Source: an uncultured Clostridia bacterium (GTDB taxonomy: Bacteria; Bacillota; Clostridia; TANB77; CAG-465). From it: a DNA stretch of 64,000 nt. Made by a program: the position numbers and the translations under genes. The notes under the pieces were generated by a model. The model was not told the DNA's origin and searched no databases. It saw only the letters and a program-made list of their open reading frames with translations. The stretch covers positions 26,174 through 90,173 of the forward strand of contig CANQUF010000003.1 in NCBI GenBank assembly GCA_947626975.1. Reading direction: 5' to 3'. Shown in pieces: positions 4,278 through 28,752 of the stretch (position 1 is the stretch's first letter; every line of letters begins with the position of its first letter).

Positions 4278-6536
4278 ATGTTAAAAATATTATGCTATTT
4301 AAGAAAAACTACCATTTCTGTTATTGCTATAGTACTGTTATTATGTATTCAAGCAGCAGCTGATCTTGCTTTACCAGACTATACTTCAAAAATAGTAAAT
4401 ATAGGAATACAGCAAAATGGAATAGAAAATCAATCACCTGAAGTTATTAGAAAGTCAAAATTAGATGATTTATCTCTATTTTTTAATAATAAAGAAGAGG
4501 TGTTAAATAAATATACATTAGTATCGAAGGATAGTATCGATAATTCAAAAAAAGAAGAATATCTAGAAAAATATCCTGAACTTAATAATCAAGAACTATA
4601 TGTAATAAATGATGATATAACAAAAGAGGAAATAAGTAATTTAAATAATGCATTTAGTAAACCTTTAATGGAATTATATTTAGTTCAAAATGAAGAAATG
4701 TCTAATGTAATAAAACAACAAATAATTTCAAATTTGCCTGAAGAACAAAAACTAGCTTTTCAAAATATGCCTTTGATAGAAATATTAAAAATGTTACCTC
4801 AAGATAGTTTAAATCAAATAAAAAATACATTAGATTCTGAAATTGATAAAATGCAAGGTACAATTATAGATCAAGCTGCTATATCTATGGTAAAAGATGA
4901 ATATCAAACTATAGGAGTAAACGTAGATAAATTACAAACTGACTATATTATAATGGCGGGACTACAAATGTTAGGAATAGCTTTTATTAGTATGGTATCT
5001 GCTATAGCTGTAATGCTACTATCTTCAAGGGTAGCTGCAAAATTAGGGAATACTTTAAGAGATATTGTATTTAAAAAGGTTATTAATTATTCAACAAAGG
5101 AATTTAATGAATTTTCTACTGCTTCTTTAATAACTCGTAGTACAAATGATATTCAACAAATTCAATTATTAATTACAATGTTATTTAGAATTGTAATATA
5201 TGCCCCAATTATTGGTATAGGTGGATTTGTACATGTACTTGCAAGTAATAACTCATCTATGGCCTGGATAATTGGTCTTGCAATAGTATGTATAATTTTT
5301 ATAGTTGGAATATTATTTATTTCAACTATGCCAAAATTTAAAAAACTGCAAGATTTAATAGATAGATTAAATTTAGTATCTCGTGAAATTCTTACTGGTC
5401 TTCCTGTAATTAGAGCTTTTAACACAGAAAGAAAAGAAGAAAAAAGATTTGAAAATTCAAATAAAGATTTGATGAAAGCAAATATTTTTGTAAATAGATC
5501 AATGAGTATGATGATGCCTCTTCTTATGTTAATAATGAATGGTATTACTCTTTTAATAATCTGGATTGGTGGCCATAACATTGATAGTGGAGCTATGCAA
5601 GTTGGAGATATGATGGCATTTATACAATATACAATGCAAATAGTAATGAGTTTCTTGATGATATCATTTATATCCATAATGCTTCCTCGTGCTGCAGTAT
5701 CTGCTAGACGTATAAACGAAGTAATTGAATCTGAAATTAGCATAAAAGATGTGGATGAACCTATATCTTTTGATGATAATAAAAAAGGTATAGTTGAATT
5801 TAAAAATGTATCATTTAGATATCCTGATGCAGATACAGAAATATTGGAAGACATTACATTTACAGCTTACCCTGGAAAAACAACAGCTTTGATTGGTAGT
5901 ACAGGTAGCGGAAAGTCTACGATTGTTAATTTAATACCACGTTTTTATGATGTTACTGGTGGTGAATTATTAATTGATGGAGTAAATATAAAGAAAGTTT
6001 CTCAAAAAGAATTAAGGAAAAGAATTGGATTTGTACCACAAAAAGGTATTTTAATTAGTGGTACTATAGAGTCAAATATTAAGTTTGCAAATCCAGATAT
6101 GTCTGATGAAGATATGATTGAAGCTGCAGAAATAGCACAAGCTAAAGAGTTTATCGAAAGTAAACCTAACAAATATAATGAAGAAATATCTCAAGGAGGA
6201 ACAAATGTTTCTGGTGGGCAAAGACAACGATTATCAATAGCTAGAGCAATAGCTACAAATCCTGAAATTTTTGTTTTTGATGATAGTTTTTCTGCTCTTG
6301 ACTTAAAGACTGATAGAAAATTAAGAGATGCTTTAAAGAAAAAGACTAAAAATAAAACGGTTATAATTGTTGCACAAAGAATAAGTACTATAATGGATGC
6401 AGATCAAATAATAGTTTTAGATGAAGGAAAAATTGTTGGAATAGGAAAACATGAAGAATTACTTAGAACATGTGATATATATAAGCAAATAGCTTTATCG
6501 CAACTTTCAAAGGAGGAATTAGAAAATGGCAAATAA
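4278..6536 (+). CDS. ABC exporter permease/ATPase, degenerate-site subunit of a heterodimer
   Basis: Six-TM exporter domain plus NBD. Walker A is GSTGSGKST and the signature is VSGGQRQR. Walker B is FVFDDS (Asp replaces the catalytic Glu). The H-loop is AQR rather than AHR. A long hydrophilic insertion lies between TM1 and TM2. Confidence 0.85.
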   Translation: MLKILCYLRKTTISVIAIVLLLCIQAAADLALPDYTSKIVNIGIQQNGIENQSPEVIRKSKLDDLSLFFNNKEEVLNKYTLVSKDSIDNSKKEEYLEKYPELNNQELYVINDDITKEEISNLNNAFSKPLMELYLVQNEEMSNVIKQQIISNLPEEQKLAFQNMPLIEILKMLPQDSLNQIKNTLDSEIDKMQGTIIDQAAISMVKDEYQTIGVNVDKLQTDYIIMAGLQMLGIAFISMVSAIAVMLLSSRVAAKLGNTLRDIVFKKVINYSTKEFNEFSTASLITRSTNDIQQIQLLITMLFRIVIYAPIIGIGGFVHVLASNNSSMAWIIGLAIVCIIFIVGILFISTMPKFKKLQDLIDRLNLVSREILTGLPVIRAFNTERKEEKRFENSNKDLMKANIFVNRSMSMMMPLLMLIMNGITLLIIWIGGHNIDSGAMQVGDMMAFIQYTMQIVMSFLMISFISIMLPRAAVSARRINEVIESEISIKDVDEPISFDDNKKGIVEFKNVSFRYPDADTEILEDITFTAYPGKTTALIGSTGSGKSTIVNLIPRFYDVTGGELLIDGVNIKKVSQKELRKRIGFVPQKGILISGTIESNIKFANPDMSDEDMIEAAEIAQAKEFIESKPNKYNEEISQGGTNVSGGQRQRLSIARAIATNPEIFVFDDSFSALDLKTDRKLRDALKKKTKNKTVIIVAQRISTIMDADQIIVLDEGKIVGIGKHEELLRTCDIYKQIALSQLSKEELENGK

Positions 6537-8367
6537 TAATAAAAGACCTCCAATGGGAAGAATGGGACCAGGAAGAGGTGCTGTAGAAAAAGCAAAAGAT
6601 TTTAAAGGAACTACTAAAAAGCTATTAAATAATTACTTGGTAAAATATAGATTCCAAATTATTGTAGTTATTATATTTGCTATTGCAAGTACAATATTTA
6701 CAATTGTGGGACCAAAAATACTTGGAAATGCTACTACAGAAATTTTTAATGGATTAATATCTAAAATTTCTGGTGGCGATGGGATTAATTTTAGCAAAAT
6801 AGGTAAAATAATCATAACATTATTAGCACTTTATGTTATAAGTTCAATATTCTCTTTTATACAAGGTTTTGTAATGACATCTGTATCCCAAAAGCTAACA
6901 TATAAATTACGTAATGATTTAGTAGAAAAAATAAACAGGCTTCCTATGAATTACTTTGATAGAAAAACAAATGGTGAAGTTTTATCTATTATTACTAATG
7001 ATATAGATACTTTATCTCAAAACTTAAATCAGAGTATTACACAAATAATAACTTCAGTATGTACAGTAATTGGAATACTTATTATGATGTTCTCTATTAG
7101 TTTTGTAATGACAATAGTATCATTTATTGTTTTACCAGTATCTGCTCTACTTATTAGTACAATTGTAAAAAAGTCTCAAAAGTACTTTAAAAGACAACAA
7201 GAATATTTAGGGCATGTAAACGGGCAAGTAGAAGAAATATATGGTGGACATATAATTGTAAAAGCATTTAATTTTGAAGATAGTGCAATAAAAAATTTTA
7301 AAAAAGCAAATGATGAATTATATCGTAGTGCTTGGAAATCTCAATTTTTATCTGGACTTATGTTTCCAGTTATGAATTTCATTTCTAATATAGGGTATGT
7401 ATCAGTAGCTATTCTTGGTGGATATCTTGCAATAAAAGGAAAAATAACAGTTGGAAATATTCAAAGCTTTATACAATATAACAAACAATTTACACAACCA
7501 ATAAATCAAATAGCACAAGTATCTAGTATGTTACAATCTATGATTGCAGCAGCAGAAAGAGTATTTGAATTCTTAGAAGAGGAAGAAGAACCAAAAGTAA
7601 TAGATAACAAATTAAATATTAAAAACTTGAAGGGAAATGTAGAATTTGAACATGTAAGTTTTGGTTATAATCCTGATAAAATTATTATAAATGATTTTAA
7701 TGCTAAAGTTAAAGAGGGACAAAAAATAGCTATTGTTGGACCAACTGGTGCTGGCAAAACTACTATGGTAAAGCTTTTAATGAGATTTTATGATGTAAAT
7801 AGTGGTAAAATACTTATTGACAAACATAATATACAAGAATTTGATAGAGGAGAACTTAGAAAAATGTTTGGTATGGTTCTTCAAGATACATGGTTATTTA
7901 ATGGGACTGTAAAAGATAACATAAAATACGGAAAAGAAGATGCTACAGATAATGAAGTTATTGAAGCTGCTAAAGCAGCACATGTACATCATTTTATAAA
8001 AACATTACCTAATGGATATAATGCTCTATTAAATGAAGAATCAAGTAATATATCAGCTGGTCAAAAACAGCTTTTAACAATAGCACGTGTTATACTTACA
8101 GATCCTAAAATACTTATACTTGATGAAGCAACTAGTTCTATTGATACTAGAACAGAGCAATTAATTCAATCTGCTATGGATAATTTAATGAAAGGAAGAA
8201 CTAGTTTTATTATAGCTCATAGACTTTCTACAATAAAAAATGCTGATTTAATTTTAGTAATGGATCATGGAGATATAGTAGAACAGGGAACACATGATGA
8301 ATTATTACAAAAACAAGGTTTCTATGCAGGATTATATAATTCACAATTTGAAGATTGTGAAGAATAA
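6526..8367 (+). CDS. ABC exporter permease/ATPase, consensus-site subunit of a heterodimer
   Basis: Overlaps the upstream stop by 11 nt. Walker A is GPTGAGKTT, Walker B is ILILDEATS and the H-loop is IAHRLST. The signature is the non-consensus ISAGQKQ. Confidence 0.85.
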   Translation: MANNNKRPPMGRMGPGRGAVEKAKDFKGTTKKLLNNYLVKYRFQIIVVIIFAIASTIFTIVGPKILGNATTEIFNGLISKISGGDGINFSKIGKIIITLLALYVISSIFSFIQGFVMTSVSQKLTYKLRNDLVEKINRLPMNYFDRKTNGEVLSIITNDIDTLSQNLNQSITQIITSVCTVIGILIMMFSISFVMTIVSFIVLPVSALLISTIVKKSQKYFKRQQEYLGHVNGQVEEIYGGHIIVKAFNFEDSAIKNFKKANDELYRSAWKSQFLSGLMFPVMNFISNIGYVSVAILGGYLAIKGKITVGNIQSFIQYNKQFTQPINQIAQVSSMLQSMIAAAERVFEFLEEEEEPKVIDNKLNIKNLKGNVEFEHVSFGYNPDKIIINDFNAKVKEGQKIAIVGPTGAGKTTMVKLLMRFYDVNSGKILIDKHNIQEFDRGELRKMFGMVLQDTWLFNGTVKDNIKYGKEDATDNEVIEAAKAAHVHHFIKTLPNGYNALLNEESSNISAGQKQLLTIARVILTDPKILILDEATSSIDTRTEQLIQSAMDNLMKGRTSFIIAHRLSTIKNADLILVMDHGDIVEQGTHDELLQKQGFYAGLYNSQFEDCEE

Positions 8368-8398: not shown

Positions 8399-8440
8399 AA
8401 AACGTCTAAATTTTTTATTATATTTAGACGTTTTAATTCT
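8399..8440 (+). terminator. Rho-independent terminator after the ABC operon
   Basis: Stem AAAACGTCTAAAT/ATTTAGACGTTTT followed by Ts. Confidence 0.8.
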
Positions 8441-8458
8441 TTTTATTAATAAAATAAT

Positions 8459-8627
8459 GTTACTATTCAGACTAGAAGATTATAAAATTTATAAAAAATG
8501 ATTATTAACATATTTCTAAATTAAATATAATATTTTAAAATTGTATTGCAAATTCAATATTATGTATAATACACATTAAATTTTAATTAATTTTGCATTT
8601 TCTGATCAAGGTAGTCTGAATAGTAAC
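8459..8627. mobile_element. MITE-like non-autonomous element, copy 1 (169 bp)
   Basis: Perfect 16-bp terminal inverted repeats GTTACTATTCAGACTA / TAGTCTGAATAGTAAC. Flanked by the 8-bp direct duplication AAAATAAT. No ORF. A second copy lies at 18393..18573. Confidence 0.85.
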
Positions 8628-8667
8628 AAAATAATTAAATTTAATTTAATTTAAATAAGTTTTATGC

Positions 8668-8696
8668 TTGACATAAATAATAAACTCATATATAAT
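8668..8696 (+). promoter_or_regulatory. sigmaA-type promoter
   Basis: TTGACA (8668-8673), 17-nt spacer, TATAAT (8691-8696), upstream of 8798..9043. Confidence 0.5.
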
Positions 8697-8797: not shown

Positions 8798-9043
8798 ATG
8801 GTAGAATTTATTAGTGAGAATGTAGGGTTAATCATTACTTTTATTATAACTGTAATTTTTGTATTTTTGGCAGTAATAACTATAAAGGGAGCTGAAGATA
8901 AAAATATTATTCTTAAGCAAAAGGAAGCAGATGTACGTGAACAGGCATTGACAGCTGAAATAAAGAAAAAGGCTGATGCAGAAAAAGATGCAGATCAACA
9001 AATTCATCAACTGATAATAATAATATTAATGAGGAATAAATAA
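8798..9043 (+). CDS. Small membrane-anchored protein, unknown function
   Basis: GAGGAGG RBS. N-terminal TM helix followed by a charged K/E/A-rich region. Confidence 0.55.
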   Translation: MVEFISENVGLIITFIITVIFVFLAVITIKGAEDKNIILKQKEADVREQALTAEIKKKADAEKDADQQIHQLIIIILMRNK

Positions 9044-9203: not shown

Positions 9204-9812
9204 ATGAATGATACATCACTTAATGTTCAAGAAAAGAGAGTTTACGATTATATAAAACAACAAATAAGACAAAAAGGTTTTCCACCATCAGTAAGAGAGA
9301 TTTGTGCTGCACTTGGTTTTAAATCTACTTCTTCAGCCCATCAATATATTGCAAGAATTGCTGAGAAAGGATATATTGATAAAAGTGATTTGAAGACTAG
9401 AGCAATTAGAGTTATTGGAGAGGAACCAACAATAACTTTACCTATAGTTGGAAAAGTAGCAGCCGGTGAACCTATTCTTGCTACACAAAACATTGAAGAT
9501 TATTTTTCAATTGGTGAAAGCTTTTTTAAGACAAATGATTTACAATCAGATAATTTCATACTAAAAGTTCAAGGCGAAAGTATGATAAATGCTGGTATAA
9601 ATGATGGAGATTATATAATTGTATCAAAACAAAATGTAGCAAAAAATGGGCAAATAGTTGTAGCAATGATTGATGGAGAAGCTACAGTAAAAACTTTTTA
9701 TAAAGAAAAAGATCATATAAGATTACAACCAGAAAATGATACCATGTCACCAATTATATCAAAAAATGTAGAAATAGTTGGAAAAGTAGTAGGATTATTT
9801 AGAAAAATATAA
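9204..9812 (+). CDS. lexA: LexA repressor
   Basis: N-terminal wHTH (PPSVREICAALGFKSTSSAHQYI). VAAGEP cleavage region, GESM serine and ATVK lysine of the S24 peptidase domain. Confidence 0.9.
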   Translation: MNDTSLNVQEKRVYDYIKQQIRQKGFPPSVREICAALGFKSTSSAHQYIARIAEKGYIDKSDLKTRAIRVIGEEPTITLPIVGKVAAGEPILATQNIEDYFSIGESFFKTNDLQSDNFILKVQGESMINAGINDGDYIIVSKQNVAKNGQIVVAMIDGEATVKTFYKEKDHIRLQPENDTMSPIISKNVEIVGKVVGLFRKI

Positions 9813-18289: not shown

Positions 18290-18392
18290 AAAATAACCTC
18301 TTTATTAAAAATACTATATAATATTAATATAACATAAATATACTTTAATAACAATCGAATTAATAAAAAAATTAAGATACTTGGTATAAAAA

Positions 18393-18573
18393 GTTACTAT
18401 TCAGACTAGAAGATTATAAAATTTATAAAAAATGATTATTAACCTTAATATTACTATATTTCTAAATTAAATATAATATTTTAAAATTGTATTACAAATT
18501 CAATATTATGTATAATACACATTAAATTTTAATTAATTTTGCATTTTCTGATCAAGGTAGTCTGAATAGTAAC
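18393..18573. mobile_element. MITE-like non-autonomous element, copy 2 (181 bp)
   Basis: Same 16-bp TIRs as copy 1, flanked by the 8-bp duplication TATAAAAA. Differs from copy 1 by one 12-bp indel (CTTAATATTACT) and one substitution. Confidence 0.85.
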
Positions 18574-18585
18574 TATAAAAATATG

Positions 18586-18619
18586 TAGTCCATAATTGTT
18601 AATTTACAATTATGGACTA
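18586..18619 (-). terminator. Terminator of the 197-aa gene
   Basis: Perfect 14-bp stem TAGTCCATAATTGT/ACAATTATGGACTA with a T-run on the minus strand. Confidence 0.75.
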
Positions 18620-18624
18620 TAGTT

Positions 18625-19218
18625 TTAAGGTGCTGTATCAAAGCACAGTACATTTAGTAAAATATTTTCTTTCCCATCAGATACAATGTTGTAGTAGTAC
18701 TGCGAAAAATTTCTAAGTTGATTATTTATTTCCATATAATAGCCATATTCGGTAAATTTTTTATTAGACCAACGTATTGACATATCTTGAAAATTTTTAA
18801 TCCTTTTCAGTTTCTTAGAAGAATTAAGCAAACTACAATAAGCAATTAACTTCCTATAGTATATGAAATCAAATTTTCTCAGATTAGTAATATCTAGATT
18901 GTATAGCATTCGTATAAAGCTTTCTAATTCATTAAGCGAATTTAATATTAAATTGGAATCATTTTGCTTAATATGTTCTATAATTATGTCTGACCATTTT
19001 AAAATTGCTTGTATTGCAATATTAAATGAATTGCTTGAAGAACACATACTAGATAGTTTTGAATAATCAGTTAAATATAAGTCTTTTATGGTTATAGGCT
19101 TATATCCTAATAATTCATAGCTAGGTTCATTGTTTTGCTTAAGTAGTATCCGGTCTATCAAGTTATCACCAGATAATGTTTTCCTACTAAATAAGTTTTT
19201 TGCATTTTCAAATTTCAT
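18625..19218 (-). CDS. Hypothetical protein (197 aa)
   Basis: GGAGGGTG RBS. Contains an in-frame CGG codon. No motif recognised. Confidence 0.55.
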   Translation of the reverse strand: MKFENAKNLFSRKTLSGDNLIDRILLKQNNEPSYELLGYKPITIKDLYLTDYSKLSSMCSSSNSFNIAIQAILKWSDIIIEHIKQNDSNLILNSLNELESFIRMLYNLDITNLRKFDFIYYRKLIAYCSLLNSSKKLKRIKNFQDMSIRWSNKKFTEYGYYMEINNQLRNFSQYYYNIVSDGKENILLNVLCFDTAP

Positions 19219-27894: not shown

Positions 27895-28752
27895 ATGTTT
27901 CAAAATTTACAAAAGAAATTTTTAGATATTATATATTGGTTGCATGATATACTACAATTAAATAGTCCAATTAGAGTTGTAATACTCATAATTGATATTG
28001 TAATTGTTTCACTTTTAATTATATATATGTATAAGTTTATAAAAAAGACACGTGCAAGTCAAATATTTAAAGGGATAATATTATTATTTTCTTTATTTAT
28101 AATTGCTAAAATATTTAATATGGTAATTCTAAATTTTATACTTACTAATTTTTTGACTTATGGTGTAGTTCTTTTGATTGTTGTGTTTCAACCTGAGATT
28201 AGAAATGTATTTGAACAAATAGGAAGACAAAAATTAGTGGATGTATTTGATATGAATGGTGATATTCTTGTAAAACATTCAATAAGTGAAATTGTTAAAG
28301 CAGTAGAAATTATGTCCTTGAAAAAAATAGGAGCTCTAATTGTAATACAGAGAAATACTAATATTTCTGAGGTGTTAAAAGAAGGAGTTGCTTTATCTGC
28401 AAAAATTTCATCAGAATTAATTCAAAACATATTTACACCAAGGACACCTTTACATGATGGAGCAATTGTTATAGATAAATCACAAATACTTGCTGCAAAG
28501 TGTATTTTACCACTTGCATCTGAAGTAGCAGTACCAAAAAATCTTGGAACAAGACATAGAGCTGCTATTGGAATTACAGAAATATCAGACGCTTTAGTAG
28601 TTGTAGTCTCAGAAGAGACAGGAACTATTTCACTTGCAGAAGGTAGTAATTTAACAAGAAATTTATCAGGAGATAAATTAAAAGAATTATTATTAACAAA
28701 GCTTGATAGGACAAAAAATAGTCAAGTTATGAAAAATATAGTAAAAAAATAA
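27895..28752 (+). CDS. cdaA: Diadenylate cyclase CdaA
   Basis: Three N-terminal TM helices followed by a DAC domain with LHDGAIVI and GTRHRAA motifs. Confidence 0.88.
   Translation: MFQNLQKKFLDIIYWLHDILQLNSPIRVVILIIDIVIVSLLIIYMYKFIKKTRASQIFKGIILLFSLFIIAKIFNMVILNFILTNFLTYGVVLLIVVFQPEIRNVFEQIGRQKLVDVFDMNGDILVKHSISEIVKAVEIMSLKKIGALIVIQRNTNISEVLKEGVALSAKISSELIQNIFTPRTPLHDGAIVIDKSQILAAKCILPLASEVAVPKNLGTRHRAAIGITEISDALVVVVSEETGTISLAEGSNLTRNLSGDKLKELLLTKLDRTKNSQVMKNIVKK

Follow-up and report, generated by a model that had tools for sequence, protein, structure and literature searches.

A MITE Family of an Uncultured Gut Clostridia Bacterium, Very Probably Derived from a Divergent IS66-Type Insertion Sequence

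The window analyzed here is a 64,000-bp stretch of contig C3 (C3:26174-90173) in a 1.15-Mb assembly of an uncultured Clostridia bacterium (39 contigs, 24.6% GC, estimated 94.7% complete). It contains two copies of a MITE that, to judge from its ends and flanks, very probably derives from a divergent single-ORF element of the IS66 family (ISBst12 type). An earlier note on this DNA had described two copies with perfect 16-bp terminal inverted repeats (TIRs) and differing 8-bp target-site duplications. End-to-end alignment and comparison of the flanks (AAAATAAT and TATAAAAA) showed this description to be exact, and the interpretation given with it is supported. The case is a clean but ordinary one of known mobile DNA. 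It provides a complete, documented MITE with its parent IS for uncultured, reduced-genome gut Clostridia; the catalogue of mobile elements gains an IS66-derived MITE, and the view of how such elements work is unchanged.

Two Copies of the Element in the Window

Copy 1 (169 bp) and copy 2 (181 bp) can be aligned from end to end (Table 1). A 12-bp segment, CTTAATATTACT, is missing from copy 1, and at one position G in copy 1 (TTGCAA) is replaced by A in copy 2 (TTACAA); there are no other differences. Both start with GTTACTATTCAGACTA, the exact reverse complement of which forms their other end, and the likeness of the two loci ceases exactly at the outer ends of these repeats. The 16-mer has four exact occurrences in the window; with up to three mismatches allowed, six were found against 1.28 expected, a number reached in none of 100 shuffles. 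Copy 2 has exactly the sequence of the family consensus, as does the copy at C11:34307-34487. Over its full length, copy 1 is 93% identical to the 181-bp consensus, and nearly all of the difference is due to the 12-bp gap; the same deletion is found in copy 1 in the assembly of another sample (L047).

No ORF of at least 20 amino acids is present inside the element, in agreement with the claim that neither copy codes for protein. An RNA gene was considered and rejected: no Rfam match was found in positions 1-30000 of the window, and the fold z-score of -4.2 comes mainly from pairing of the two terminal repeats.

Table 1. Positions of the MITE copies and related features. Positions without a contig or locus name are those of the window.
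Feature	Position	Strand	Remark
MITE copy 1	8459-8627	+	169 bp, 12-bp internal deletion relative to the 181-bp consensus
Copy 1, left TIR	8459-8474	+	GTTACTATTCAGACTA, exact match
Copy 1, right TIR	8612-8627	-	exact match, minus strand
Copy 1, left target-site duplication	8451-8458		AAAATAAT
Copy 1, right target-site duplication	8628-8635		AAAATAAT
MITE copy 2	18393-18573	+	181 bp
Copy 2, left TIR	18393-18408	+	16-mer search
Copy 2, right TIR	18558-18573	-	16-mer search
Copy 2, left target-site duplication	18385-18392		TATAAAAA
Copy 2, right target-site duplication	18574-18581		TATAAAAA
Hairpin before copy 1	8399-8434	+	AAAACGTCTAAAT...ATTTAGACGTTTT, then T-rich run; found by eye, failed scanner criteria
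Intrinsic-terminator-like hairpin of the 197-aa gene (18625-19218, minus strand)	18586-18619	-	14 pairs and T-run; terminator scan
Full MITE copy	C2:46036-46217
Full MITE copy	C3:34632-34800		copy 1
Full MITE copy	C3:44566-44746		copy 2
Full MITE copy	C7:10130-10310
Full MITE copy	C10:17866-18046
Full MITE copy	C10:28324-28504
Full MITE copy	C11:34307-34487
Full MITE copy	C31:84-264
Copy cut by contig end	C4:1-53
Copy cut by contig end	C35:1-131
Decayed relic of the parent	C1:28809-29890		frameshifted and truncated; tblastn
N-terminal transposase fragment	C7:42364-42711		tblastn
212-bp deletion derivative	C4:28704-28915		left-end region of the parent and right repeat
IS right end	C37:2500-2566		exact repeat, then hairpin and last transposase codons; contig ends there
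Short element in another MAG	L013:3651-3817
Short element in another MAG	L021:4993-5154
Short element in another MAG	L004:4670-4761
Short element in another MAG	L081:2044-2244
Short elements in other MAGs	L057, L062, L065, L069, L073

Copies in the Rest of the Genome

Exact and near-exact sequence searches, together with BLAST of the assembly, bore out the expectation of further copies: eight full ones and two truncated by contig ends are spread over eight contigs. Full copies are 169-182 bp long and, the 12-bp deletion of copy 1 aside, 99-100% identical to one another; a single T/C site divides the copies into two subfamilies. The 16-bp repeat is perfect in seven of the eight, the one at C10:28324 having a single mismatch. 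All eight are intergenic, as had been stated for the two insertions in the window, and five lie within ~90 bp downstream of a stop codon; the copy at C2:46036-46217 is located between divergent rpsF and a mecA-like gene.

Target-site duplications were examined in nine elements, eight of the 181-bp-type repeat and the 212-bp derivative at C4:28704. Perfect 8-bp duplications flank seven of them, and all seven sequences are different (TTTTTTAG, AAAATAAT, TATAAAAA, AAAAAAGG, TAAAATTT, TTGTAACG and TTAATGTG). Since the probability that two 8-mers match by chance, calculated from the GC content of 24.6%, is ~1e-4 to 4e-4 per site, these duplications are not coincidental. Segmental duplication was rejected as the source of the copies, because the likeness between loci ends precisely with the inverted repeats and the 8-bp duplication differs from site to site. 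Thus, the copies arose by transposition, as had been proposed.

The two elements at which no 8-bp duplication was found are the 212-bp variant and C7:10130-10310, the only full 181-bp copy of this kind, which is flanked by GAAAAATT and AAATCAAT. Two copies may have recombined to produce it, or sequence next to it may have been deleted.

Full-Length Elements with the Same Termini

The search for a full-length IS with the same ends, suggested in the earlier note, led to 1.8-kb elements in related genomes that encode an IS66-family transposase. In a species-representative genome collection, the 18-mer terminus was found at 32 loci. Among the uncultured gut Clostridia that account for nearly all of them are Clostridium sp. 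CAG:465, HGM13625, UMGS1761 and MAGs from rabbit, sheep and mouse. By calculation, an 18-mer is expected ~17 times in 596 Gb of uniform composition, and two of the 32 matches (a cyanobacterium and a Crocinitomicaceae MAG) are probably due to chance. Many matches lie 55-77 nt from contig ends, which is usual for multicopy repeats. The closest relatives by RF-1 identity (72-76%), UMGS1761, Lapin-022 bin75, CAG:465 and HGM13625, also carry the terminus.

At one of these loci (L015), the same repeats enclose a 1.8-kb element with a frame split by one frameshift into 386-aa and 131-aa parts; its ORF matches DUF6444 and DDE_Tnp_IS66. Protein searches retrieved hundreds of intact relatives of ~500 aa, mostly on contigs of 1.7-2.2 kb. 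The closest intact one, P0004, is 504 aa long, is 75% identical to the L015 ORF and is encoded by an 1804-bp element (L053/L054) with the ends GTTACTATTCAGACTT ... TAGTCTGAATAGTAAC. The terminal 15-18 bases are common to the MITE and to L053/L054, L015 and L022. In its positions 1-36, the MITE shows 89% identity with the left end of L015, and the 16-bp right repeat is shared as well; for the central ~129 bp of the MITE, no similarity was found to any of the full-length elements compared.

P0004 matches the DDE_Tnp_IS66 profile (PF03050) with E = 3.1e-18 and 66.6 bits (cut-off 23.1) over profile positions 30-282 of 284, and DUF6444 as well; the same PF03050 profile gave 4.4e-21 and 1.6e-19 with two other transposases of the family, P0006 and P0012. 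With the NCBIfam model NF033517, "IS66 family transposase", the E-value was 6e-35 and the score 121 bits. Since this is below the equivalog cut-off of 180 bits, the lineage is a distant relative of IS66. The nearest annotated homologues of P0004 on plasmids, all named IS66 family transposase, are at most 28% identical to it. The 1.8-kb elements L053, L054 and L055 have one called gene each and no tnpA/tnpB accessory genes. Flanking duplications of 7-8 bp were found at the full-length element L022 and at the short element of L021.

It is well established that elements of the IS66 family create duplications of 8 bp and that those of the ISBst12 group possess a single ORF. The parent resembles this group in its length of ~1.8 kb, in its one protein of ~500 aa with the DDE_Tnp_IS66 domain after an N-terminal coiled coil, and in its terminal inverted repeats, which begin with GT and come with 8-bp duplications. 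It differs in its distant transposase, whose N-terminus matches DUF6444 and gave no match with the classical zinc-finger and leucine-zipper Pfam models, and in its termini, which read GTTAC... where classical IS66 ends are of the GTAAGCG type; the MITE itself, in contrast to the group, is non-coding. Because its ends bound IS66-type elements and its copies are flanked by 8-bp duplications, the MITE is most probably a non-autonomous derivative of such an element.

The more unusual points concern the parent, namely a group II intron in one IS copy, described below, and two DnaA-box 9-mers that set its left end apart from those of known IS66 elements. The 9-mers, TGTGGATAA (the reverse complement of TTATCCACA), are situated upstream of the transposase gene, and their distances from the left terminus, about 50-63 and 124-134 nt, are conserved. 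They were found in C4:28704-28915 and C1:28800-29889 of the genome studied here and in the left ends of L015, L022, L009 and L055; the 1.15-Mb genome has only 30 exact DnaA boxes in total, and the 181-bp MITE has none. One could go further and propose that the parent lineage is a clade of single-ORF IS66-type elements, so far uncatalogued, in gut Clostridia with small genomes, marked by GTTAC termini, an N-terminus matching DUF6444 and two DnaA boxes at fixed positions in the left end, that its transposition or transposase expression is linked to DnaA and to the replication cycle, a link that has been proposed for Tn5/IS50, and that the MITEs are mobile promoter or terminator modules rewiring neighbors such as mecA. 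Taken together, these proposals are speculative, and we consider it improbable that all of them hold.

Mobility and Age of the Family

In the mechanism we envisage, each copy of the MITE would retain only the parts recognized by the transposase, i.e., the 16-bp repeats and ~36 bp of the left end of the parent. The DDE transposase of ~500 aa, supplied in trans by the 1.8-kb IS66-type parent, would bind both ends of the MITE, excise or copy it and insert it through a staggered 8-bp cut, the repair of which would create the 8-bp duplications. We infer that an IS66-type transposase moved the copies, that its source is or was a full-length element left out of the assembly of this bin, and that the burst was recent.

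Among 41 genomes searched (the one studied here, 24 from its genus and 16 from its order), the 181-bp form was found only in the genome studied here. One species of the same genus has a decayed copy, 85% identical and lacking the right end, and the family is therefore older than the species. The copies within the genome are 99-100% identical versus 85% for the sister-species copy, which argues for a recent burst and fits the recent activity suggested in the earlier note.

No empty site was found in the genome itself with the joined flanks of all nine elements. Apparent spanning matches for the C31 element were rejected as an empty site, since they belong to a different repeat (the terminus of IS-X, a second element described below) that ends 7 bp before the MITE. 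An exact-protein look-up of three flanking genes in other samples likewise gave no empty site and retrieved only the same strain with both insertions present, or contigs that break within the MITE or shortly before it. In the closest species, the order argS, DUF1294 gene, ~197-aa gene is conserved, with spacers of 72-86 bp and no MITE. Here, the spacer is 335 bp long, of which 189 bp are accounted for by the MITE and one copy of the duplication; the spacers of the related species are too diverged to be aligned with it.

Remnants of the Probable Parent and a Second IS66-Type Element

The earlier note had reasoned that a cognate transposase must be encoded elsewhere. In keeping with this, no intact one is present in the assembly: the PF03050 profile gave no match to the IS66 DDE domain in all six frames, and tblastn with seven members of the family found only relics (Table 1).

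One can therefore ask whether the family is dead, a leftover of an earlier burst whose copies were propagated or maintained solely through recombination or segmental duplication, with no recent transposition. Besides the lack of an intact cognate transposase in the assembly, this explanation is favored by the state of the full-length copies retrieved from MAG records in the terminus search, all of which are frameshifted or deleted (L015, L022 and L009), and by the one right end of the parent in this genome, which is interrupted by a group II intron. However, the short-read bin systematically lacks IS interiors, so the missing transposase is weak evidence of absence, and the high identity of the copies, set against that of the sister-species copy, speaks for a recent burst. 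We consider the explanation unlikely, although it deserves more weight than the two discussed below. The origin of the copies by transposition, evident from the exact repeat boundaries and the different duplications, is not in doubt, even if the copies may no longer move.

The 5' end of the group II intron (GTGTGCCCAGC...) follows directly after the hairpin of the C37 right end, ~67 nt from the terminus and antisense to the transposase gene (intron region C37:2500-2638). The same intron is also found at C16:13896(-14661) and C12:28470 (28421-28470), and a reverse-transcriptase fragment at C16:14281-14661 belongs to one of its copies. Further copies or fragments of the intron follow terminator-like hairpins, a placement known from bacterial class C introns. 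A solo right end, TAGTCTGAATATTAAC, is located at C1:96496-96528; it has one mismatch, and its subterminal sequence is like that of the C37 end. Remnants of two other contig-end repeat families lie on both sides of it, and it adjoins two paralogous genes of ~133 aa.

A second IS66-type element, IS-X, is unassembled in this genome. Its terminus, GTTACAGTTCAGTAAGAAAT, finishes twelve contig ends, including those at C3:1-75 and C3:93920-93994 on the contig of the window but outside it, and from the number of these ends at least six copies can be inferred. A full-length IS-X of 1871 bp with an intact transposase is present in another MAG (L085:4636-6506); this transposase is about 31-33% identical to P0004 and P0058. 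Further families at contig ends include GTTACTACTCAGGG (C19/C29), GTTACAATTCACAGCC (C13/C27) and several unrelated repeats. The real genome thus contains many IS66-type elements, the interiors of which are missing from the short-read bin. The mobile DNA of reduced-genome gut Clostridia is mostly lost from short-read bins, and IS66-type termini at contig ends account for much of the fragmentation of these assemblies.

No other IS66-type element of this genome is as abundant as IS-X, which is probably active, exists elsewhere with an intact transposase and has termini with GTTACnnTTCAG in common with those of the MITE; IS-X could thus be the element that moves the copies. Against this, IS-X matches the MITE repeat at only 10 of the 16 terminal bases and has its own short derivatives with its own repeats in other genomes, whereas a transposase-bearing element with the exact repeat is found in close relatives and as remnants in the genome itself (C1 and C37). 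Mobilization by IS-X is therefore possible but decidedly less likely, with a small chance of being correct, and we retain the element with the exact termini as the parent.

In other gut Clostridia MAGs, elements of ~90-230 bp were observed that have the same termini or those of IS-X and unrelated interiors (Table 1). It seems that this IS clade gives rise to MITEs time and again, and each time independently.

Comparison with Other Short Repeats of Bacteria

The element shares several properties with bacterial MITEs such as the Correia elements of Neisseria and RUP of Streptococcus pneumoniae: it is shorter than 300 bp, non-coding, multicopy and intergenic, and has terminal inverted repeats, target duplications and, presumably, a transposase acting in trans. 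Correia and RUP elements give TA duplications, and the present MITE differs from them in its 8-bp duplications and its apparent IS66-type origin. No IS66-derived MITE was found described in the open-access literature searched. Another example of bacterial MITEs is provided by MITEPsy1/2 of Pseudomonas syringae (PMC3189936).

An intergenic segment of ~150 bp between short perfect inverted repeats also resembles the invertons of gut bacteria, in which a site-specific invertase would flip the segment between the 16-bp repeats and so switch a neighboring gene. The promoter-like motif TTGTAT-18 nt-TATAAT, read from the sequence inside the element, and the copy at C2:46036-46217, where this motif faces mecA, agree with such a role. 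This explanation is nevertheless hardly credible, since about ten near-identical copies at unrelated loci each have their own 8-bp duplication, which inversion does not make, the same ends bound transposase-bearing 1.8-kb elements, the orientation relative to neighboring genes is inconsistent among copies, and at both sites of the window it is identical in independent assemblies, with no sign of inversion. A functional promoter in the element was rejected on its own account: promoter-like matches were not above the shuffled expectation in this AT-rich DNA (14 versus 8.5 +/- 3.1 and 10 versus 5.4 +/- 2.1), and the TTGTAT-18 nt-TATAAT motif is missing from the lists produced by the promoter scans.

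Neighborhood of the Window Copies

Both insertions had been described as lying next to terminators. This holds for copy 2, which is 12 bp from the hairpin called by the terminator scan. At copy 1, a hairpin can be recognized by eye downstream of an ABC-transporter gene (6526-8367), 24 bp before the element, but it does not satisfy the scanner. The two hairpins belong to the context and are outside the elements.

A perfect consensus promoter, TTGACA-17 nt-TATAAT (12/12), is located at positions 8668-8696 of the window, upstream of an 81-aa ORF (8798-9043) that is followed by a gene for a LexA-type repressor (9204-9812).
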